A DNA stretch of 63,219 bases, filler included, from Basidioascus undulatus (lineage: Eukaryota): NCBI GenBank assembly GCA_000826855.1. It is 7 parts of 7 records of this genome, joined end to end, with 100 filler letters (N's around TTAATTAATTAA, not from the genome) between each part and the next. Parts side by side here need not be neighbours in the genome. Positions count along the whole stretch, not along the records: positions 18,328 to 24,319 come from JTLS01001827.1; 6 more parts are not named here. One strand, given 5' to 3'. How positions within the stretch are numbered: position 1 is the stretch's first letter; each line of letters begins with the position of its first letter. The translations under genes were made by a program, and so were the position numbers. The notes beneath the pieces were generated by a model. It was given only the letters and a program-made list of their open reading frames with translations, was not told the origin of the DNA and made no database searches. Of the stretch, positions 44 to 36,599 are shown piece by piece.

Positions 44-2020
44 ATGGCGCCCTCTTACAACCCGGGCAACGCGAACACCGCGCCTCTGGGCCCGCGCGCC
101 GTGCGCCCAGGCCTCGGCGCCGCCGGCGGGCACTACCCGACCCAGGGTCCCCCGCCCGGCTACGGCTCGCCCGCCGCGTTGGCGTCGCCGATGCAGAGCC
201 CCCCGCCTGGGGGCGGACCGGGCGGGGAGAAGTTGACGGTGTTTGTAGGGGGCATTAGTGCAGGGCTGAGCGACGAGTGGTTGGAGAAGCTGCTGAATGT
301 GCGTCGCTCCCGCTGCTGGCCGCTTGGGTCCGGCCTGATTTGAATGGGGTTGTCGGTTGGATGGTTGTGGGGTGTAGGCGGCAGGGAAGCTGCGCTCTTT
401 GAAGCGCGTCAAGGGCGTGACGGGCAAGCCGCAGCCGTTCGGGTTCGCCGAGTTTGCCGAGCCCGACTCGGTCCTGCGCGCGATCAAGACGCTCAACGGC
501 GTCGCCGTGCCGACGCACGAGCCGGGCGCGCAGCCCAAGCAGCTCAGCCTCAAGGCGGACGAGAAGACGCGCGCGTTCTTGGACGAGTACGAGAAGCAGG
601 TGATAAAGACTGATGTGCGTCCTTCCCTCCTCCCCACTCCTCCCCTCTGCCTCTTCCCCGTCCTCTGCCTGTCCCCCGTCTTCTCTTCCTGGGCTGGGGT
701 ATGGGATCCTGATGTTCGAGTTTCGCTATGACAGGCCGACGACGAAGCCGAGAAGAAAGCGCGCGCCGAAATCGCCGCTGTAATTGAGCAACTGCGTGAC
801 CCCGCCCAGACCTCTGCGGGCCCGTCCTCCTCGCAGCAGCCCTCGGGGCCCGAGCTCGTCATCCCGCGCCATCTGCAAGATCTCCAGCCGGACGAGCTCC
901 CCGAGGAGCAGCGCGGGATGATCACCTCAGAGATCGCGATGTTCCGCGAGCGCGCAGCGCGCAAGGAGGCCGAGCGGAAGCGCGCGGAGCTCGCGCGCCA
1001 GACCGCCGCGGGGGGGCCGCCCACCGCCGGAGGGTGGGGACCTCGCGCACCGCAACAGCAACAGCAGGATTACGCGCCTCCGCAGCAGCAGCTGCAGAGC
1101 TTCGCGGGCACGCCTCAGGCGTATGATCGTCCCATGGGCTTTGTGGCTGCGAGCTCGGCCGCCGCGGGCAGCACGAGCACGATTGTGTCGGACGAGGCGG
1201 AGGCGCGCGCGCGGCGGGAGAAGAAGGCGAGGGATCAGGAGATCACGCTTCGGGAGGTACGTTTGCGACTCTTCTAACTCCCTTCTTCCCCTTTCTCTTT
1301 TCTATCTTCAGTTTGTTTTCGGCTGGGGATTCGTGACTGAAGGAGTGATTCGTGTTGTGCAGCGCGAACGACGACTCGAGCAGCGCGAGCGCGTGCGCTT
1401 CCAGGAGCTCGACCGCCAGGCGGCTCGCGAGCACGAGGAGCGCGTGACGGAGGAGCGCGCCCGGGCGGCGGCGCGCGAGCGCCTCGAGCACTGGGACGAG
1501 GAGCGCGTGCGCAGGGACGGGAAGGAGATGTTCTTCGAGGACCGGTGCGTGCTCCCTTCCTCCCCCTCCCTCGACTCGCCCTCTTCACCGCCCTACATTT
1601 GGCTGACTTGTGTGGGTCTGGTTTGACAGACCTCGCTGGCGCTCGGCCCGCCTGCAAGCGCGCAGGCGGGAGCAAGCCGCGGACGAAGCAGACCGTGCGG
1701 CGGAGGCGGAGGAAGCCGCCGCCGCCGCGCGGGACACGGAGGCGTTCCTCGCTCGGCAGGCGCAAGAGCTGGAGCAGCTTACGGCGGAGCAAAAAGCGCG
1801 CGGCGTGCTCGTCGACGACGGGATGCCCATCCGTCTCGCCGTGCACACCTCCGCGCCCACCGCCGCCCCCTCGGCATGGGAGACGCCCGCGCCGGCCCCG
1901 GCGCCGGTGTTTGCGGGTGCGGAGGAGGAGGAGGAGGAGGAGCAGAGGAGGAAGAGGCGCACGCTTGTGAAATTGGATTATTCGGAGAGCGATGGGTTGA
2001 CGCACGAGCAGAGGGAGGCC
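44..2020 (+). CDS. SNU71: U1 snRNP protein Snu71/RBM25-like (RRM plus charged helical region), 3'-truncated
   Basis: Spliced exons 44-298, 378-614, 735-1256, 1363-1544 and 1630-~2020 with GT..AG introns. RRM motifs LTVFVGGIS and GKPQPFGFAEFAEPDSVLRAI; also IPRHLQDL and MITSEIAMFRERAA. No PWI domain is seen. Confidence 0.85.
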
Positions 2021-3402
2021 GGGGAGGTGGTTGGCGGGTCGGCTCTGGGGGGTGGGTTCCCCTGCGGGAGCCGGGGGGGGAGCTTCGGCTTCCTGCGGCT
2101 CGCTCGACGCAGGCTGCTCCTCCCCGTCCGCCTCCTCCTGCTTCTTCTCCGCCTCCTCCAGCTCCTTCACCTCCTCCTTCAAGTCCTCCTTCACCTCCTC
2201 CTTCAGCTCCTCGACCTTCTCCTTCTCCTCCTCCTTCCCCTCCGTGGCCTTTACCTCCTCCAGCGTCTTCGCAAACTCCTCCGCGGCCTGCGCCAGCGCC
2301 TTCTCGTCCGGCCGGCCCAGCGCGACGTCGTCGAGCATGAACCGGATCATTGTGAGGACAATCTCCTCACTCACGAGCTCGCGCGCGAGCCGGTTGCTCA
2401 TCGCGCTGGCGGGCTCGCCCGCCCCGCCCGACGTCGCGGGCGAGGGCGCGGAAAGGGTGACGATGCCCTTGACGAGCTCGGCGATGGTCGTGTGCAGCTC
2501 GGGGGGACGCGTGGGTGCGAGGAGGTCGGTGAGGCGGGGGACTAAGCGTTGAGAGGATAGCCACTGTTTTGAGGAAAGATGAGCTGCTGGGGTTCACGGA
2601 CATTTGAGGAGGAGGGTAGAAGCGCACATCAATGGTGCCCGAGCCCTCCGGCGTGTCCTCGGCCTGGATGATGCGGTAGACGAGGTCGACGATCGCAGGC
2701 GTTTCGATGTGGGTCAGGAGCTTCTCGAGGACATCCGGCTGAGCTTTGATAAACTCGAGCATCTGGAGCGCTCGGCCTGCTCAGCGTCTTCCCCAGTGCC
2801 TCAGCCCGAGCCCGCCGCGGAGCACTCACATCGCCCGTCTTGCGCGCCAGGAAGACCGCAACGACCCGTCCCCAATATCCAACATGCGGTCCCATTGCGT
2901 CTAACTCTCCGGCAGGCTTGTCGAGCACCGCGGACCAGAAGGGCGCGAGGAGGATCGCGTGAGACGCGGGGTCCATCGCGGCGTCTACGATTGCCCAGAT
3001 CTCGGCGCACAGGATCTCGGTCGCCATGTACGGGTATCTGAGAGCTCATACGCGTTCAGCATCACTTGTATTCCCCTCCCGCACGCCCAGGTACTCGAGA
3101 ACGCACTTGAACCTCAGCCGGTCGTCCCCGTCGACCTCAATCGAGCCGCTGACATAGCCCAGGAGCCTGGCGAGCACGGCAGGGCTCTGGAGGAACTCTA
3201 TGAGGCGCGAGTTGTGGCTCTTGGCCTCCTGAAGCAGGTCGTCCTCGTCGAAGATCTCCTCGAGCGTGACATTGTCCTTGTCGAGCAGCCCATCGATCGC
3301 AGAAGTCGTGTGGAAGCCGAATCTGCCCCACGCCCGCCCCGGCCAAGTTGGTGACCCGGATTAGACGCTGGTGGGTGAGGAGTGGACGCACCGCCAGAAC
3401 AT
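2020..3402 (-). CDS. SIT4/PP6 phosphatase-associated protein (SAPS family, Sap185/190-like), N-terminal half only
   Basis: ATG at 3402. Spliced product MFWRFGFHTTSAIDGLLDKDNVTLEEIFDEDDLLQEAKSHNSRLIEFL...KYPYMATEILCAEIW...HIETPAIVDLVYRII...SNRLARELVSEE. Confidence 0.88.
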
Positions 3403-5064
3403 GGCGATATAATCGGTTAAGGGCTTCCTAGTGGTGTGTGGAAAATAGGGAAAATGCGGGTCGAGGAAGCAGGCAAGAGTAAGATGGAAGTAGGCCAGCC
3501 AGGAGCTGCACGAACGCGTGAGGCAGCCGGGGTGGCCGTTCGCGAAAAAGGTTGACGTGTGACGGTTGATTGACAACGACAACGGCCTCCGCTCCTCCGT
3601 GACAGCGGACTCCGCTCCCTCGCTGCGAAGGCATAATTTCAACTGGTCTTTTTCTGGATACTCCTTTCATGGCAAGCATGCCTTACTCTGAGATTCTGGC
3701 TGTGTGGACAAATCATGACTTGGTAGCGACAGCCGGCTTAGTTACAGGACTTGCAGCTCAAGCGCAACAGTTTGCATGCTGTCCATACTCCTCCGGTGCG
3801 TTTTCACACATTCCCACAAACTCATTCCCAGAGCTACACCAGTTGCTTTCCAAGCTAAACAGGACCACGCGTGTTGAGCTCTCCAAGCTGCACGCACGTT
3901 GAGCAACTCCAAAACAGGGCGCTTCAATTACCTATGCTCCGCAAGCCTGGCATGATCCGAAAGAATCATGTCAAAAGACTCCCTAAAATAATTCTGCGAC
4001 ATAATGGGGATGGTTCGAAGGACAGACGTGGACTCTGGTGGGCTGTGCGAAGTAAGCACTGCAACGACGGCCAGTCCTCAGCAACCAGTTTCGTCCTCCC
4101 GACCAGTAGAATAGTACGAAGGACCTATTGAGGCATTGTTTCTTTTTTCTCGACCCACGGTCAACTTCATGGGTATCATCGAATAACAGCTCGTGCTTGA
4201 AGCCGTCGTGGGCAGTGCGATCATTCTCCCGCAGACGCACTTAGCCCGTCTTCGGCGGTCGCCATCCAGTCTTGGGATACGATAAGGCTATAAATCTTAA
4301 CGAAACCGAGCAAATCGAACGAACAGGTTGCAGCGACCTGCACTCCAACCCTCTCGTTTCTTTTATATTTCTCTAAAAGAATCAGAAAGGTATGCTAGCA
4401 ATGCTTTTGAAGAGAAGTCGGAGACGCAAACATTTGGCGGTGCAGCTGCATGGCCGAAACTCCCTCGGTGGCGAATGACAGACGAGCGGACTCGGTCCAA
4501 ATCGCCTCTTTCCTTTCTTCCCTCATCCCGCCCGATCTTCGTCTGCATTTGCTGTCCATATACGAATCCAACCCACTAACAATGCGCTCCATCCATTCTT
4601 TTTGACTCACGAGAGCGCGCACAGCCTCACATCTGGGGGTAATCGTCTCGCGCCTTCGTCTCGGGTTGAACTGACTCTGCTGCTTCTCATCCGCGACCCG
4701 ACGCGTCTCAACCCCTCGCCCACCTCGCGCTTCAAACTGGCGCTCCACACCTAAGTCTCAGCGCTCATGGACCTTGATGGACTGACCATCCGCCCCCTCG
4801 TTCTCACCGGGACTGGCACCAGTCCAATTGTGCAGTCGTTCCTCACGTTCCTGCTCGCGCACACCCGCCATGATGGCGGTGCGAATCCCGGTTGTCGACC
4901 GACCCAGCCACAACATCCCCCTGGCCGCTTCCGCTGCCTTTATAAGGGGTGCTTGTCCTCGCTCGATCCATCCTACCCATCTCGCTTTCGTTCTGCCTCT
5001 ATCGATTTGTCGTTCGCTTCCGCTCGCTCGCTCGTCACTCACGCTCGTTATCGCTCACGCCGCC

Positions 5065-6020: not shown

Positions 6021-6120
6021 NNNNNNNNNNNNNNNNNNNNNNNNNNNNNNNNNNNNNNNNNNNNTTAATTAATTAANNNNNNNNNNNNNNNNNNNNNNNN
6101 NNNNNNNNNNNNNNNNNNNN
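6021..6120. other. Artificial contig spacer
   Basis: 44 N, TTAATTAATTAA (stops in six frames), 44 N. Confidence 0.98.
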
Positions 6121-12124: not shown

Positions 12125-12224
12125 NNNNNNNNNNNNNNNNNNNNNNNNNNNNNNNNNNNNNNNNNNNNTTAATTAATTAANNNNNNNNNNNNNNNNNNNN
12201 NNNNNNNNNNNNNNNNNNNNNNNN
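12125..12224. other. Artificial contig spacer
   Basis: N-TTAATTAATTAA-N, 100 nt. Confidence 0.98.
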
Positions 12225-18227: not shown

Positions 18228-18327
18228 NNNNNNNNNNNNNNNNNNNNNNNNNNNNNNNNNNNNNNNNNNNNTTAATTAATTAANNNNNNNNNNNNNNNNN
18301 NNNNNNNNNNNNNNNNNNNNNNNNNNN
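18228..18327. other. Artificial contig spacer
   Basis: N-TTAATTAATTAA-N, 100 nt. Confidence 0.98.
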
Positions 18328-18906
18328 CATTCTCCGCACCTCATCCCCCCCCCGCGCCCGCCATTCCCTACTACCCGCTCCGTTTCCCTCTCACATACCA
18401 CCCTCCCACGCGGGACATCCGCGCGCCCAAATCGCACACAGTCCAGTGTCTCGTCTTCCTGCCTTGGGACCGCACCTCGAAACCGCACCGCCTGCAGCGA
18501 GGCCGCCTCCCGGCGCACCTCGTCATCCTCAGCAACGACCGTCCTCTCAGCGTCCCGCCCCTCTCTTAGCTCTACCGATCCCTCTGTGCCCTCCACACTT
18601 TCCAGCGCGCCACCTTCACCGCCGCACTCAGCCCACCACCACATTCGGACCATCTCGCTCGACCTACCGCCGCGGGGCGGCAAGCGACCGTTCGCCCGCA
18701 CGGGCTCGACCGAGTTCGGCTCGCCCCTGCCCACCGTTCCCCGCACCTCGACGGTACCCCCCACCCCGGCCGTTGGGCGCGAGCTCCAGGACCGCATGCG
18801 CGGTATGGAAGAGCGGCATCGGGCCCTCGAACGCGCTCTGGATGAGACCCAGGACAAGTACAAGCGCCTTCTGACGCTGGCGACGCTGGCTGCGCAATCA
18901 CCATAG
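18328..18906 (+). CDS. C-terminal fragment of an unknown S/P-rich protein ending in a coiled coil
   Basis: Frame ends RELQDRMRGMEERHRALERALDETQDKYKRLLTLATLAAQSP*, with coding-like composition. Confidence 0.55.
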   Translation, partial: HSPHLIPPPRPPFPTTRSVSLSHTTLPRGTSARPNRTQSSVSSSCLGTAPRNRTACSEAASRRTSSSSATTVLSASRPSLSSTDPSVPSTLSSAPPSPPHSAHHHIRTISLDLPPRGGKRPFARTGSTEFGSPLPTVPRTSTVPPTPAVGRELQDRMRGMEERHRALERALDETQDKYKRLLTLATLAAQSP

Positions 18907-19109
18907 TGCTTTGGCGGCCCGGCCCTTCCATTCTTGCATAGGATCGTCATTATTCCACATTGCATCGAATCCGTAGTATTGCAAGCACACGACGCAAACG
19001 CGGACTTTGTCGGACAATCGCGATTGCGCGAAAGAGCCAGCAAGTCAAGTACAACAACATCGATGAATCACGAGGATTGTCCCCCGCCCGCCATGCGCTG
19101 CCGCCTTGT

Positions 19110-21762
19110 CTACCCGCCTCCAGCCCTGCTCTTCTTCGCGGGCGACGGCGTCTTGCTCGTCGAAGGCAAGTCGCGCTTAATCTCGCTCGACCATTTCTGG
19201 AATGCCAGGAGCAAGCAAAGCGTGATTAGTTGTGTTTGAGAACGTAAACGCAAGTCGAAAGACGCACGAAGAAGTTGCAGCGGTATGTCGGGTCGACGTC
19301 TTCACGCTTGCGCTTGCCTGCTCCCGCATCATAGCCCGGCCCGACAGGTCTGGAATCGAGGAAAGAGAAGGAGGAGGGTAGAAGCCGTTCAGTATATCGA
19401 TCGGACTGAGGCGGGAACCTCCGTGGTGCGTACCGAGAGCAAAGCCAGAAGCGCTTGCCCCTGTTCGGGCCGGGCTTGTTGACGGTGAACTCCTTGCACC
19501 TGCGCCCGCGTCCAGCAACGTTAGAATCAGCCAATTTGGAAACCCACCGCAGAACCAGCGAACACGCACGTCTCGCCATGCACCTCGCACTTGGGCGCGA
19601 CCTTGGGTGCCAAGATCGCCGCCCACGCGGACTTGGTCTCCTCCTTGTTCTTGACCGGCGCCGCCTCGGCGAGCGAGAGCGCGAAGAGCGCGTCTGCGTC
19701 CTCCCCGTCCTGCTCCTGCTCTGGCGGGCGCGGGCGCTTCTTCGAGGATGAAGAGGAGGAGCTGGATGGGGAGGGCGCGGGCGCGGCTGGCTTCGGCTTC
19801 GCCGGCGGGGCGAAAAAGGACGCGAGGGTGGCTTGTTGTTGTTTCGATTTGGCTGAGGTGGTGGCGGCGGTGGAGGAGGAGGTAGACTTGCGGAGGGGCT
19901 TGGTGGTTTGTTGAGAGGAAGAGGTTGATGTCGAGGCGATGGCTTTGCCTTTTTCCTTGCCTGCGGGCGGGGACGACGCCGAGAGGAGGGGCGCGGAGGA
20001 GGAAGGAGCTGGAAGGGGGGCGGAGGACGACGAGACGCTCGGAGACGGCGCGGATGCGGAGGGCGACTCGGAGGTAGACGCTGCGATCGACGGAGCGGGG
20101 CTCAGGCTACGGCTGACCTTGGGCGGCGTAGGGCCCGCGCTCGCCGCCGGGCCCTTCCCAAAGAAGCTGCTGAGCAGGCGCTGCTTGCCCGAGAATTCGT
20201 CCCACTGACCCGCGCAGATGCGGGGCGGGTCCGGGGCGTGGCTGAGCGCGTTGCGCAGGTGGAGCGTCTCGCCCGGCCGCGTCGGGTGCGGAATCGAGTC
20301 GTGCAGGTCGATGTAGACCGGGCAGTGATCTGAGCCGAGGACGTCGGGCTGGATGTCGGCGGAGGCAAGCCAGGGGAGGAGGGCAGGGGAGATGAGGATG
20401 TAGTCGATCCGCGTGCCGTAGTTGCCTGGCCTGTGGGTGACCAATGGACAGCATTGTCAGTTCGCATGTGACATATGAAGGGGAGGTAGAAGGAACGAGT
20501 CGCACCGAGCGTCGATAAGAGTGTTCCAGCCTTTAGAACAAGATCGGTCAGCGCGGCGTGCGTGGTTGAGTGCAGGTGAGCGGGACTCACAGGTGTACAT
20601 CCCCTTCCTATCAGGAAACTGTCTCCTATGGACATCGACGAGCGGGCCGCCCTCGCCCGTGAGCGCGTCGAACCACCTCCTCGTCGGCTTTTCCCTGAAC
20701 GCCCTCCGGCCCTCCTCGGTCTTGGTCATCTCCCACCCGTCGCAGTGGTCGATCGGGCGATGCGCGATGTTGATATCGCCGACGAGGATGACCTCCCTCC
20801 CCGCGTCGCGGAGCGCCCGTACGCGCGCAGCGAGGAGATAGTGGAAGCTCATCTTGAACGGCGTGCGCGCCTCGTCCGTCTCGGCGGGGCAGTACACGTT
20901 AATGAGCACGAAGAGGCCGCAGTCGAGGACGAGCGCGCGGCCCTCGCTATCGAGGAGCTCGAGGTCCGTAAACGCCGGGTCGACGACCTCGTACATGTCC
21001 GAGGAGAGCAGGAGCGGCTGCACGCGCTCCGAGCTCGAGTCGAGCGCCGGGCGCAGCTTCGGCTGCGAGGAGCGCGAGGGGAAGAGCCCCGTCAGGCCCT
21101 CTTCCGCCCGCGTCGGCGACAGGACGGAGCGCTTCGTGTGCACGCTCACGCCGCTGTAGGCTTTGGAGCCGCTGCAGAAGGACCAGAACGAGTCGTAGGA
21201 GGGCGGGACGGCCATGTCGCGCGTCACCTTCGACCGCTGGATCTTGGTTTCTGGACAGCATCTCCAGAGGGTGTCAGCATTGGGTGTGGCTGAAGGACGG
21301 AGACCTATGGCGTGCCTTGGAAACAGACGATGTCCGCCTTCAGCTCATCGAGCATCGCCTCGGTCGTTTTGAGGGTGAACCATCTGCATTGCGGAAGGGC
21401 GTGGGACGACGTCAGTGGCCAGGCGCGAACAAGTCGCTCAACTGTACACTCCCAAATCCCCGTGTAAAGCTCGCATTTCCGACATTTATATGGGTGCAGA
21501 CCGCATTGTAACACTTTCACTCTGCACTGTCCTCCTCGAGAGCACCACGGTCTTCAATGCCACCGAGCCGCTCCATCCGACTGCATACCGGAAGATTGGC
21601 TGTACGGAAGCCACGGCAATTGAACCACCACGCACGGATGATACCCAAATACCGTCCTGATGCCATTCTGTGCCCAATCCCAACGGAGGTCAGCGCTCCT
21701 CATCCACCGAGCGTGCGGCGAAGGACCAAGGGACGCACAATGTTCCAGGTGAGGATCCTCAT
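19110..21762 (-). CDS. APN2: AP endonuclease 2 (ExoIII/EEP domain plus C-terminal zf-GRF)
   Basis: Spliced: MRILTWNI/NGIRT, DIVCFQETKI, YSGV, DSEGR, INVYCP, VGDINIAH..IDH, MYTC/WNT..DAR, NYGTRIDYIL, GSDHCPV, ATLASFF (PIP-like), PKCEVHGE..KPGPNRGKRFWLCSRPVGPG..RCNFF. Last exon is KWSSEIKR...GGG*. Confidence 0.95.
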
Positions 21763-22156
21763 CGCCGATCTCAGCTTCGCTTCTGCACCAGGATTTGTAC
21801 GCAGATCATGAACTTTTGAAAATCTGAGACCTGTATGGGGCTGAGAATGCGTGAATTTGGACGAGGGCACGATATCAAGGGCAACGCGTCGCGGACGCGA
21901 CGACTGAGTGCTGGTTTCCGTCTCGCTTCCGCGGAATACCCGGCGAGGTGTTCGGAAGAAGACGTGGAGCACGCTTGGCCTTCTTTTTTTTTTCTGCACT
22001 CCACACTCTTGTCCCAGACGACAGCAGCTCACCAGAGATTGTCGGAATTCCAACTCATACGCTTCGAATCTCACTCTCCATTGCACGCCGCTTCGAGGCT
22101 TTCGTTCCTGTTCAAGTCCACCTCGTCGTTCGATCGTCTTCTGCTTTTCGCATCTC

Positions 22157-23902
22157 ATGCGGGACCACTACCGGGTTCTGGGCGTGGAGCCAACAGCGAC
22201 CTTCGTTGAAATAAAAGTACTTCAACACTTTTCATACGTGCTTCACCTTCTGACCCAGCCGTCCGAACCGCCACAGACGGCTTTCCGCCGCAAGGCGCTC
22301 TTCACGCATCCGGACAAGAACCCAGACCGCGAAGCCGCGGGGCACGAGTTTGCGCAGTGCAAGGAGGCTTTTGACGTCCTCGGGGACAACTATCTCAGGG
22401 CGCAGTACGACTTTGAGCGGAAATGGGCGGGCGTATTTGGAGGCGGCGAGGATGAGGATGAGCAGGCTCAAGGTATGTGCCGCATTGCAACCTGCCGGTT
22501 GCGAGAAGAACTTGCACTGAATAGTGGTTACATAGATGAGCAAGCAGACGACGTTGAAGAGGACTCCGACTCGGAAGGAGATGACGACCTTTTGGACGGG
22601 GATTACCCACCACGAACGGCGCCTGCCAACTCGGTCGAGACCGAAGACGTCCTCCTTTACGTGCACCTGATACGCTCTCACGTATTGCCATATACGAATG
22701 CACCACATGTGTGTATTCCCCTCATTTCCACCTCTTGCCCCGTCGTTTCTCATATGTTTCTCTAGGGATTCTTCACCGTCCTCCGCAACTTCTTCGGCCG
22801 CATTTGCCTCTGCGAGCCTAACACACCGCAGCATCCCTCACTCCCGGAATTCGGTACTCCCGCCTCATCCGAGGAGGAAACCGAGCGGTTCTATGCCGCC
22901 TGGGGCAAGTTCACGACTGCGCGGGAGTTCCGTGGGGCGGAGGAGCTGGATGCTTCGCGGGCGGGCAGCAGGAAGGAGAAGATGTGCGTGTGGAGCCGCA
23001 GAGGCTCGAGGCTCGAGATGCTGATAGCTGGCGGTGGGTGGGTAGCGCGATTGGAAAGGCGAACACCCAGGCGCGTAAGGAAGCGAAGAAGGCGTACGAG
23101 AATATCCTGCGGGTGAGTATGGCGCTCCTCTGCAACGATCTCTACTCTGGTAACCGCTGATCACTATCGGCGCTGCCTACAGGAACTCGTCTCGCTGGTA
23201 CAAGCGCGCGACCCGCGCGTTTCCCCTCAACCGTTCGCATCCACATCCTCCTCCGCACAGCCCGAACCCTCAGCGTCCGCGTCCACCTCCGCGTCCACCT
23301 CCGGCGGGCCCCGCCCCGACCACCTTTCCGGCGCGCGGCCTCGGCGTCCTCGACCCAAGCGCGCGCGCCCGCGCCCCGCGAGCAGCTCGCATCCTCCCTC
23401 GACCGTCCAGCAAAAGCTCCGCACCTTCCTGACCTTCCTCCATCTCATCTCTCCCCTGCTCATCCCGCTCCTCCTCATTCTCCTCTCCCTCTACTGGCTC
23501 TACCGCTCCCCGCGCACCTCTCCCCTGCCCTTCACCTTCCTCTACGCCCTCTACACGCTCGGAACATCGCCTCTCGCATCATCCACGCCCTTCTACCCGT
23601 TCTTCATTGCGCTCGAGTACACGCTCTACCCGTCGTACTGGGCCGCGCCGGCTTTCCTCGCCGCCGCGTGGTTCCTCGGGGGGATCGAGCTCGAGTGGAG
23701 CGTGTGGGGCCCTGTGTGGGTGTGGTTGACCATGGGCTGGGTCGGGTGGGTCGCGCCTGCGCTTGTGCTCGCTGCGTGGGCGGCCAGGGGACGCAAGATC
23801 GGGGAGTGGATGCTGGATGCTGGAACGCTGAGCGGGGCTGGGCTGCTGGCTTGGGAGGTGATCAAGCATGTGTGGAGAGCTGGGAGGTGGTTGTGGGGTT
23901 AA
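22157..23902 (+). CDS. DnaJ protein of JJJ1/DNAJC21 type with a hydrophobic multi-TM C-terminus
   Basis: J-domain MRDHYRVLGV..AFRRKALFTHPDKNP..EAFDVL. Zuotin-homology-like region GFFTVLRNFF..LPEFG..FYAAWGKFTTAREF..ARKEAKKAYENILRELVSLVQARDPRV. The last exon, 23183-23902, is one open frame. Confidence 0.82.
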
Positions 23903-24319
23903 GAAAGCATACAAGTGCATATCGCCACATGGGCGTTCAGACAATCAGTCCCAGACTTGACGGTGTGTACGGCGAAACGGTATGCTACATCACGCCGACA
24001 AATCTCCTTTCACATTCACCGATTTGACAATCTTGCAGACCTCCTTGTGCCGTACCCAATCCGCCCTTTGACAGTCCGACCTGTCGCCGTACGTCAGCGA
24101 ACATGCTTTAGCTGCTCTCCTCTAATATCCTCTCATCGTGAGACAATATGGTGGTTATCCTCTCTTCTCCTCCCCCGCAACTTCTGCTTTGCGAAGCCCT
24201 GCTTTATGCGGCATTCTTCTTGCCGACTGCGGCGTACCAGTGTAGTGAGCATCGTAAGACAATGGAAAGGGTCTGCTGGACTGACAGGCTTGCAAGTGCC
24301 CGTGTCAGTCAAGTATCGT

Positions 24320-24419
24320 NNNNNNNNNNNNNNNNNNNNNNNNNNNNNNNNNNNNNNNNNNNNTTAATTAATTAANNNNNNNNNNNNNNNNNNNNNNNNN
24401 NNNNNNNNNNNNNNNNNNN
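24320..24419. other. Artificial contig spacer
   Basis: N-TTAATTAATTAA-N, 100 nt. Confidence 0.98.
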
Positions 24420-30410: not shown

Positions 30411-30510
30411 NNNNNNNNNNNNNNNNNNNNNNNNNNNNNNNNNNNNNNNNNNNNTTAATTAATTAANNNNNNNNNNNNNNNNNNNNNNNNNNNNNNNNNN
30501 NNNNNNNNNN
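30411..30510. other. Artificial contig spacer
   Basis: N-TTAATTAATTAA-N, 100 nt. Confidence 0.98.
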
Positions 30511-36499: not shown

Positions 36500-36599
36500 N
36501 NNNNNNNNNNNNNNNNNNNNNNNNNNNNNNNNNNNNNNNNNNNTTAATTAATTAANNNNNNNNNNNNNNNNNNNNNNNNNNNNNNNNNNNNNNNNNNNN
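36500..36599. other. Artificial contig spacer
   Basis: N-TTAATTAATTAA-N, 100 nt. Confidence 0.98.

Follow-up and report, generated by a model that had tools for sequence, protein, structure and literature searches.

Jjj1 and Zuotin are soluble J-proteins, and each is seated on the 60S ribosomal subunit by a zuotin homology domain (ZHD). Jjj1/DNAJC21 are cytosolic J-proteins of 60S biogenesis, where they bind Rei1 and act in the release of Arx1 from pre-60S particles. Zuotin is the J-protein of the ribosome-associated complex and binds Ssz1 through its N-terminal segment; its animal homologs (DNAJC2) carry SANT domains at the C-terminus. Other J-proteins are anchored in membranes. ERdj1/MTJ1 (DNAJC1) has a signal sequence and resides in the ER membrane, with a lumenal J-domain that acts on BiP and a cytosolic domain with SANT repeats that binds ribosomes near the tunnel exit. 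Yeast Hlj1 and human DNAJB12/DNAJB14 are also ER-anchored; they have a cytosolic J-domain, a single span, a DUF1977-type region and no ZHD.

In the available portions of the study by Albanese et al. 2010 (PMC2854368), the ZHD is called unique to Jjj1 and Zuotin homologs. The same portions describe yeast Jjj1 as having two C2H2 zinc fingers that flank a charged region; the long Lys/Arg-rich region confers stable ribosome association, and the zinc fingers bind Rei1. They also report that the J-domain and ZHD are needed for function while the C-terminal charged/zinc-finger domain is dispensable, and that Jjj1 without this domain is altered in its localization and works from the nucleus (PMC2854368). 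For Zuotin, the accessible parts of a further source state that the ZHD contacts the 60S subunit at H24/eL31, near the tunnel exit, and that Zuo1 residues R247 and R251, located where ZHD helix III begins, bind rRNA H24 and are needed for ribosome binding (PMC11014269). Zuotin additionally has a middle domain and a C-terminal four-helix bundle (PMC6519820).

We analyzed a gene of Basidioascus undulatus whose product begins like these ribosome-docking proteins and ends in an apparently membrane-spanning tail. Our main reading, to which we assign a probability of roughly 0.5, is that the gene encodes an Hsp70 co-chaperone of the Jjj1/Zuotin family in which a flexible linker and a tail of at least two spans take the place of the usual C-terminal module. 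The gene itself is genuine and transcribed, and its arrangement is unusual and so far seen once.

The gene occupies positions 22157-23902 of the window, i.e., the whole stretch of 63,219 nucleotides (filler included) that was analyzed; it lies on the + strand, as do all features given below. Six exons encode 477 residues, and the five introns, each GT..AG, are 57-70 bases long. Exon 1 (22157..22216, residues 1-20) encodes the start of the J-domain (helix I), and exon 2 (22277..22472, residues 21-85) the remaining J-domain and the start of an acidic linker. Exon 3 (22536..22708, residues 86-143), which matches no Pfam family, covers the Asp/Glu-rich acidic linker and the lead-in to the ZHD. The ZHD is encoded by exon 4 (22766..22983, residues 144-215), and a helix rich in Lys, Arg and Glu by exon 5 (23046..23112, residues 216-238). 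The last exon, exon 6 (23183-23902), has 240 codons, i.e., 239 amino acids from residue 239 onward and a TAA stop codon (23900..23902). An Rfam scan of the gene's contig gave no matches.

This model is supported by a 1567-base contig assembled from a public sequencing run (X3). The contig aligns to 22006..23884 and lacks exactly the five predicted introns, while the last exon contains no joint, leaving the tail unspliced; the final five codons and the stop lie beyond its end. Depth in this run is zero in the flanks, with cover limited to exons and untranslated region. The run is labelled 'DNA?', so that its RNA nature is our guess rather than a matter of record; nevertheless, five exact GT..AG joints together with cover of exons and untranslated region only are the pattern of a transcript assembly. 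The contig also gives the extent of the 5' untranslated region (22006..22156). Because these 151 bases contain no ATG, the ATG at 22157 is the first of the transcript. Two genomic contigs, one of 5910 bases from run X1 and one of 15825 bases from run X2, are colinear with the window over 21900-24232 without any differences. The spliced contig and the colinear genomic contigs together support the 23112/23183 splice and show no sign of misassembly. The preliminary description had singled out this splice for confirmation, and it is present in the X3 contig (again, of unrecorded RNA nature). That description had also named splicing that skips the hydrophobic stretch, and a misassembly near 23220, as grounds for abandoning its interpretation; the X3 contig instead runs unspliced through the tail, and X1 and X2 are colinear at that point.

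In the N-terminal half, the Pfam DnaJ profile (PF00226) matches exon 2 with an E-value of 4.9e-11 (43 bits, cut-off 27.8) over profile positions 20-63 of 63, and exon 1 with an E-value of 0.005 over positions 1-18. The HPD tripeptide is found at residues 31-33 (22307-22315), and at E<=0.001 exon 2 matches 29 J-domain chains in the PDB. The J-domain begins at residue 3, leaving no N-terminal extension and no signal peptide. Throughout residues 1-316, no 19-residue Kyte-Doolittle window exceeds 1.4, and the N-terminus is not hydrophobic. Exon 4 matches ZUO1-like_ZHD (PF21884) with an E-value of 4e-8 (34.3 bits, cut-off 25.1), the match spanning only profile positions 18-68 of 105. Both the intact HPD J-domain and the zuotin-homology-like region put forward in the preliminary description are thus matched by Pfam families above their cut-offs, the latter over part of the profile. 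The ZHD may well continue into the helix of exon 5 and end with ELVSLVQARDPRV (residues 239-251), at the start of exon 6 (23183..23221); a Pfam search of three pieces that included exon 5 and this start of exon 6 found no family in any of the three, pieces of this length being too short to score.

Comparison of exon 4 to the PDB points to Zuotin. Zuotin ZHD chains are the best 3 of the 6 matches listed, with E-values from 8.2e-4 (5dje_A) to 0.078. Among the matches listed, those with E<0.1 are only 5dje_A and 7x3k_A (Zuotin) and 7z3n_C ('putative ribosome associated protein'), and no Jjj1 or DNAJC21 chain is among them. At the ZHD end of exon 4 there is an R-x-x-x-R pair, formed by residues 208 and 212. 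These residues might be the equivalents of Zuo1 R247 and R251, a correspondence to be read with the consideration that the pair lies 5-9 residues beyond the phmmer alignment to Zuotin and is covered by no tool alignment.

The last exon runs from ELVSLVQARDPRV through a basic cluster, RPRRPRPKRARPRP, and into a series of hydrophobic segments with no stop between them. The intervening linker (23222..23425) is of low complexity, rich in Ser, Pro and Ala, and free of cysteine; it contains the basic cluster (23336-23377), in which 8 of the 14 residues are basic. The 35 residues that precede the first hydrophobic segment include 10 Lys/Arg and lack acidic residues. At the DNA level, the linker also holds a tandem 12-base unit (23276-23303). 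The whole product has cysteines at residues 48, 157 and 159 only. Since residues 239-477 contain none, a zinc finger there is impossible, and the protein is therefore not a canonical Jjj1/DNAJC21. The lack of zinc fingers had already been noted in the preliminary description, and it also agrees with a Pfam search of the last exon, which found no family.

We judged potential transmembrane segments by hydropathy scales, using a 19-residue Kyte-Doolittle window and a threshold of 1.6. This threshold is exceeded in two stretches, residues 317-348, with a maximum of 2.44, and residues 416-436, with a maximum of 1.66, so that two of the five hydrophobic segments pass. The strongest transmembrane candidate is segment 1 (23426..23503, residues 320-345), and the second candidate is the Trp-rich segment 4 (23702..23785, residues 412-439), which is followed by RGRK. 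The other three are marginal: segment 2 (23531..23587, residues 355-373) reaches 0.77, segment 3 (23636..23692, residues 390-408) reaches 1.23 and segment 5 (23807..23863, residues 447-465), which is probably an amphipathic helix, reaches 1.04. By a simple sum on a biological hydrophobicity scale, segment 1 scores -0.18 and the other segments 2.35 to 7.47. The distribution of charges, with 10 Lys/Arg before span 1 and 3 after segment 4, fits the positive-inside rule and is compatible with an in-out-in topology. The final 177 residues include 15 Trp, and the Trp richness of segment 4 would suit the interface of a membrane no less than its core. An AlphaFold single-sequence model folds the tail into six helices, of which the first has a pLDDT of around 80; confidence is low outside this helix and overall (mean pLDDT 57.6, pTM 0.26). 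The several hydrophobic segments initially described are thus present, but of the five delimited here only two reach the classical threshold; these two nonetheless provide the transmembrane signal whose absence would have spoken against a membrane protein.

Several statistics indicate that the tail is coding in the stated frame. Over its part at 23417-23899, the first, second and third codon positions have GC contents of 0.578, 0.534 and 0.845 (chi-square p 1.9e-9). The periodicity statistic is 0.289; the 95th percentile for the same contig, over 789 window/frame combinations, is 0.224. With two further ORFs of the window as the training set, synonymous codon use scores 0.472 bits per codon in the tail's frame, and the five remaining frames range from -0.235 to 0.153. 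Both GC3 (0.81 vs 0.71) and codon use (0.472 vs 0.091 bits per codon) are higher in the tail than in the J-ZHD exons. With no stop, a spliced contig and these codon statistics, the initial observation that one exon and frame continue through the basic cluster into the hydrophobic segments is upheld. Moreover, no ATG occurs in the tail's frame upstream of residue 422, so the first spans could be translated only within the J-protein. At the same time, the composition of the tail DNA is skewed, with 83-85% pyrimidine in segment 1 and then 72-75% G+T (72% in segment 4), and the DNA of segment 1 contains a degenerate 15-base tandem unit. Given this extreme base composition and the tandem unit, the hydrophobicity of the tail could be a by-product of simple sequence.

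The order of domains in the N-terminal half, with an HPD J-domain at the extreme N-terminus followed by a linker and a ZHD, is that of Jjj1/DNAJC21. Unlike these proteins, the product lacks C2H2 zinc fingers and has a hydrophobic tail instead, and in place of their long Lys/Arg-rich domain it has a basic cluster of 14 residues. In the absence of zinc fingers, binding of Rei1 through such fingers is not expected. The 'JJJ1/DNAJC21-type' label of the preliminary description consequently suits the N-terminal half but not the C-terminal half, and the best PDB matches of the ZHD exon are to Zuotin chains. Zuotin (Zuo1/DNAJC2-MPP11) likewise combines a J-domain and a ZHD. However, the N-terminal extension that binds Ssz1 is absent here, as the J-domain starts at residue 3 with no upstream ATG, and there is no middle domain or four-helix bundle, the region beyond the ZHD being of low complexity and then hydrophobic, with no Pfam family.

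The resemblance to ERdj1 is in concept only, as a membrane-anchored J-protein with ribosome contact, both of which are here predicted from sequence. In the inferred topology, unlike that of ERdj1, neither the J-domain nor the ribosome-type domain is lumenal, and both share one side of the membrane; there is also no SANT match in Pfam and no hydrophobic N-terminus, and homology is limited to the J-domain. As in Hlj1 and DNAJB12/DNAJB14, the J-domain is N-terminal and the (here predicted) membrane anchor C-terminal. Unlike those proteins, the product has a ZHD, and no Pfam family matches its tail.

We found no relatives that share the tail. The last exon (239 amino acids) had no match at E<=0.001 by phmmer against 1.84 billion protein representatives, nor among the 8000 candidates scored in a word-indexed search of longer proteins. 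It gave no usable match in the ESM Atlas, whether searched entire or as its residues 72-239, and none of its 593 pattern matches in JGI metagenome contigs was confirmed. A search for tail paralogs or repeats within the window returned only the self-match. For the ZHD exon, 38 word-sharing candidates among longer proteins included none at E<=0.001. A single locus from 598 metagenome pattern matches to this exon was rejected as a chance match: with the whole model as query, tblastn recovered only the 29 residues already matched, which were 55% identical, the FY..W core was unmatched and the J-domain was absent. A 184-residue read-through of exons 1-3 and two in-frame introns had one match among 1034 candidates, an ordinary type-I DnaJ that is uninformative. 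These blank results are weak evidence, because the queries were single exons, the E-value bar was high and the libraries evidently do not include the organism's own protein. Furthermore, hydrophobic tails diverge quickly. In a full-text literature search, a J-domain, ZHD and hydrophobic tail in combination were not described, which is absence of evidence only.

The skewed DNA prompts one to ask whether the tail has any function. It is possible, though we lean against it, that the gene is a young, lineage-restricted chimera, i.e., that a JJJ1-like gene, duplicated or truncated, lost its 3' part and reads into simple CT-/GT-rich sequence. The tail would then translate by chance as Leu/Ser/Pro/Phe and Trp/Val/Gly; the product would be expressed and may stick to membranes without a specific role for the tail, and the gene would be drifting or acting only via its J-ZHD core. 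Such an origin would account for the strong skew and weak tandem units of the tail DNA, and it is in line with the lack of codon periodicity in the linker (p 0.66) and of any tail homolog in our searches. The lack of a close relative of the ZHD exon among the 38 candidates suggests rapid evolution, or else sparse sampling of the lineage. However, codon bias is stronger in the tail than in the J-ZHD exons, which is unexpected for freshly recruited non-coding DNA; the 240-codon exon is open and transcribed, and the blank searches carry the little weight explained above.

A different doubt concerns the structure of the tail. Even if translated, it might not form a bundle of spans, and might instead provide a single anchor with interfacial or amphipathic helices (e.g., binding lipid droplets or the membrane surface), or an end that governs stability by being degron-like or prone to aggregation. 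We regard this as improbable. Three of the five segments fall below the Kyte-Doolittle threshold, only segment 1 is near zero on the biological scale, Trp, Pro and Ser contents are high, and model confidence is low outside the first helix; yet the hydrophobicity of segment 1, with its 26 residues, matches that of typical membrane spans, segment 4 likewise exceeds 1.6, and the charges fit the in-out-in topology. Finally, the arrangement could be an artefact, whether from a wrong gene model, from two genes wrongly joined in assembly or from a processed DNA copy. Contigs were joined artificially to form the window, a second frame over the same stretch (23161..24027) is likewise open, and none of the listed runs, including the uncertainly labelled X3, is on record as RNA. 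Against this, the whole gene lies inside one contig (18328-24319) that X1 and X2 reproduce across the gene, X3 comprises exons and untranslated region only, with exact joints, and the alternative frames are far lower in codon use. An artefact is accordingly very improbable, and this reading is already largely refuted.

Returning to the main reading of a Jjj1/Zuotin-family co-chaperone with a membrane tail, we can outline how such a protein might act. The lack of a signal peptide and the 10 Lys/Arg before span 1 would place the J-domain and ZHD on the cytosolic (or nucleoplasmic) face, with the tail in a membrane, most likely that of the ER or the nuclear envelope. The ZHD may dock on the 60S subunit by the tunnel exit, by analogy with Zuotin, and the HPD J-domain would trigger ATP hydrolysis by cytosolic Hsp70, which would thereby be loaded onto clients where ribosomes or 60S particles lie at the membrane. 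Since the core of yeast Jjj1 works without its C-terminus, exchange of the C-terminal part is a plausible relocation of a working module.

A more specific proposal, which we offer as speculative and on balance doubtful, is that this membrane-tethered ZHD J-protein is a cytosol-facing counterpart of ERdj1, one that would keep 60S subunits or translating ribosomes at the surface of the ER or nuclear envelope, held by the tunnel exit, and load cytosolic Hsp70 there. In a variant of this proposal, the NLS-like basic cluster and the flexible linker would direct the protein to the inner nuclear membrane, and pre-60S particles would be acted on there by the Jjj1-like core prior to their export.

With one organism and no relatives found, neither redeployment to a membrane nor an origin from simple sequence is established. 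If the tail arose recently from simple sequence, the gene would be a clean, transcribed case of an old chaperone core gaining a hydrophobic end from pyrimidine-rich DNA. If the membrane reading is true, the ribosome-docking, Hsp70-recruiting J-ZHD module would be one that can be redeployed to a membrane surface, and the gene would offer a ready-made construct for probing ribosome-local Hsp70 activity at a membrane. Should the counterpart of ERdj1 or its inner nuclear membrane version prove true, it would represent a new way to couple ribosome-bound Hsp70 cycles to a membrane.

The J-protein gene (22157-23902, + strand) can be read as six exons, at 22157-22216, 22277-22472, 22536-22708, 22766-22983, 23046-23112 and 23183-23902, the last of which ends in the stop codon TAA at 23900-23902; the spliced reading has 477 residues. 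All five introns have GT..AG ends and lengths of 57-70 bases, and such short introns, together with a G+C of 59%, look fungal. Contigs from three public sequencing runs (X1, X2 and X3) were aligned to positions 21900-24300. From X3, a single contig of 1567 bases spans 22006..23884 and omits 22217-22276, 22473-22535, 22709-22765, 22984-23045 and 23113-23182, i.e., each of the predicted introns with its GT..AG ends. The 23112/23183 splice proposed in the preliminary description is therefore supported, and, as the contig has no joint within the last exon, splicing out of the hydrophobic part is not seen. At 21900-21980 and 23925-24167, on either side of the gene, X3 has no coverage. Such a profile is typical of a transcript assembly; X3 carries a guessed label, 'DNA?', and no listed run is recorded as RNA. 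The contig ends 16 bases short of the stop codon. With no ATG in the 151 bases that it covers 5' of the gene's start, the earliest start codon is the one at 22157, and the N-terminal extension of Zuotin has no counterpart here. Introns 1 and 2 (22217-22276 and 22473-22535; 60 and 63 bases) lack an in-frame stop, and their retention would add 20 and 21 residues, respectively, to the J-domain region with the frame kept; X3 shows the spliced form only.

A misassembly near 23220 had been raised as a possibility. We saw no sign of one, given that contigs from X1 (5910 bases) and X2 (15825 bases) span 21900-24232 with zero differences from the window, an agreement that is not independent if these runs were the window's source, as is possible. 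The window itself consists of contigs of about 6.0 kb joined by falling size (6004, 6003, 5992, 5991 and 5989 bases). The six spacers, of a six-frame-stop type (44 N, TTAATTAATTAA, 44 N), lie at 6021-6120, 12125-12224, 18228-18327, 24320-24419, 30411-30510 and 36500-36599, with none beyond 36599. Because the contigs are concatenated, genes across a spacer are not true neighbours, and the true neighbourhood of the J-protein gene is 18328-24319 only. Upstream of the gene and divergent from it is a long ORF on the - strand (20457-21344), with the contig's strongest codon periodicity and a weak Endonuclease/Exonuclease/phosphatase match (E 1.2e-4, 22.4 bits; cut-off 24.5). On a different contig, a - strand ORF at 1274-2593 matches SAPS (SIT4 phosphatase-associated protein, PF04499; E 2.4e-12). 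At 24225-24300, genomic depth rises from 16 to 400-700 in X1 and from 42 to 1400-4660 in X2, and several short contigs stop or branch at 24225 and 24238, suggesting that the contig ends in a high-copy repeat; this candidate has one copy in the window and no Rfam match.

The J-domain was identified as the preliminary description had it. The Pfam DnaJ profile matches exon 2 (E 4.9e-11, 43 bits; cut-off 27.8) and, over profile positions 1-18, exon 1 (E 0.005); HPD occupies residues 31-33, and a Protein Data Bank search with the J-domain exon gave 29 chains of ordinary J-domains at E<=0.001. The zuotin homology domain (ZHD), claimed to end at ARDPRV, is supported in exon 4 by ZUO1-like_ZHD (PF21884; E 4e-8, 34.3 bits, cut-off 25.1) at profile positions 18-68 of 105. 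Six Protein Data Bank sequences match this exon at E<=10. Two Zuotin chains, 5dje_A (E 8.2e-4) and 7x3k_A (E 0.03), lead the list, followed by 7z3n_C (E 0.078), annotated as a 'putative ribosome associated protein'; the three others are evident noise. The last third of the domain, in exon 5 and the start of exon 6, is a reading by eye: Pfam found no family in any of three pieces drawn from exon 5 and from the opening 25 residues of exon 6, which end in ARDPRV; these pieces are too short for scoring. Residues 208 and 212, an R-x-x-x-R pair outside all tool alignments, are by their position candidates for the arginines of ZHD helix III.

The last exon runs in one open frame, as previously described, from the end of the ZHD through a Ser/Pro/Ala-rich stretch and a basic cluster (RPRRPRPKRARPRP, 23336-23377) into about 160 residues rich in Leu, Ala, Pro, Trp and Ser. 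Pfam assigns no family to its 239 residues. The absence of zinc fingers is borne out, since residues 239-477 contain no cysteine and a C2H2 finger is thus impossible. The final 177 residues include 15 Trp and just 6 acidic residues. Of the several hydrophobic segments reported in this tail, two exceed 1.6 in a 19-residue Kyte-Doolittle scan (residues 317-348, maximum 2.44; residues 416-436, maximum 1.66), whereas three reach just 0.77-1.23; every window in residues 1-316 is at or below 1.4. On a biological hydrophobicity scale, applied as a simple sum, the first and fourth segments score -0.18 and 2.35, against a minimum of 10.06 over residues 1-300. The 35 residues ahead of the first segment include 10 Lys/Arg and no acidic residue, and RGRK follows the fourth, a charge pattern that fits an in-out-in arrangement. 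Single-sequence AlphaFold2 predicts six tail helices, the first (exon residues 74-108) with pLDDT of about 80 (mean pLDDT 57.6, pTM 0.26).

Searches for relatives used single exons, not joined exons, as queries. The tail had no match among 8000 scored candidates from longer proteins, none at E<=0.001 among 1.84 billion representatives, and no usable match in the ESM Atlas (as whole exon or as residues 72-239); metagenome contigs gave 593 pattern matches, of which none was confirmed. None of 38 candidates matched the ZHD exon. One metagenome locus that this exon matched was rejected: tblastn of the whole model gave a 29-residue patch only, and the conserved aromatic core and the J-domain are missing. 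An N-terminal read-through query returned one match, an ordinary DnaJ, and the window holds no second copy or similar sequence besides the gene. These blank searches show that the libraries contain neither the product nor a close relative; uniqueness of the architecture does not follow.

It is important to consider whether the tail is coding. A second + frame is also open (23161..24027), so in DNA of such G+C openness alone proves little. Over 23417-23899, G+C at codon positions 1, 2 and 3 is 0.578, 0.534 and 0.845 (chi-square p 1.9e-9). Among 789 window/frame combinations from the same contig, the tail's periodicity statistic (0.289) falls between the 95th (0.224) and 99th (0.370) percentiles, the highest values coming from about 20550-20850, in the long ORF nearby. 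A synonymous-codon score was trained on 734 codons from two other stop-to-stop ORFs of the window, one with a clear SAPS match and the other with Exo_endo_phos at 22.4 bits, under the Pfam cut-off of 24.5. The tail scores 0.472 bits/codon in its frame versus -0.235 to 0.153 in the other five; the exons of the J-domain and ZHD (J-ZHD) score 0.091. The frame has no Met between residues 1 and 422, so the first hydrophobic segments could be produced only as part of the J-protein. Codon-position bias, synonymous codon use and the lack of internal Met point to this frame. Counting against a coding tail are a linker without codon periodicity (23183-23416, p 0.66), skewed DNA (83-85% pyrimidine over 23423-23542; 72-75% G+T from 23663 on) and weak tandem units (period 15 at 23444-23488, period 12 at 23276-23303).

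The orphan status and skewed composition of the tail would suit a young chimera with a tail that is a by-product of simple sequence; its codon bias exceeds that of the J-ZHD exons, however, and we regard this account as possible but rather unlikely. We give still less weight to the view that the tail, though translated, does not span a membrane several times but is interfacial, amphipathic or destabilising. A processed DNA copy could formally lie behind the X3 contig, but an artefact is highly improbable, being largely excluded by the skipping of five introns in X3 and the identity of X1 and X2.

Jjj1 differs from this J-protein in having zinc fingers and a long charged domain, and Zuotin in having an N-terminal extension and C-terminal domains. 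Among membrane-anchored J-proteins, ERdj1/DNAJC1 binds ribosomes and has a lumenal J-domain, while Hlj1 and DNAJB12/14 combine a cytosolic J-domain with a C-terminal anchor; to our knowledge, in contrast to the protein studied here, none has a ZHD. Among the papers listed by full-text searches of literature open without subscription, we found no description of a membrane-anchored ZHD J-protein. The domain combination is real, transcribed and unusual; it is known from just one organism and has an orphan low-complexity tail.

According to Albanese et al. 2010 (PMC2854368), the ZHD is unique to Jjj1 and Zuotin homologues, and growth, the 60S balance and the recycling of Arx1 all depend on the J-domain and ZHD of Jjj1. 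The C-terminal charged/zinc-finger domain is there described as dispensable for these functions; it provides Rei1 binding, stability of polysome association and an export signal, and Jjj1 lacking it goes to the nucleus. Portions of two other papers (PMC11014269, PMC6519820) place the Zuotin ZHD on the 60S subunit at rRNA H24 and eL31, by the tunnel exit, with contact through two arginines that open helix III.

Judged from its sequence, the J-protein retains the required Jjj1 core and has its localising C-terminus replaced, and for this reason we read it as a membrane-held J-ZHD module, a reading to which, as a whole, we give a probability of about 0.5. Of the membrane-anchored, possibly ribosome-binding Hsp70 co-chaperone proposed earlier, the domains, frame and hydropathy hold; we infer the insertion, the contact with the 60S subunit, the activation of Hsp70 and which membrane is involved. 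The tail would tether the module to a membrane. As the protein lacks a signal peptide and has the basic cluster ahead of its first span, the module would remain on the side of the cytosol or nucleoplasm. There, cytosolic Hsp70 would be recruited and activated on 60S subunits or ribosomes. The protein would work like the Jjj1/Zuotin core, yet belongs to neither subfamily.
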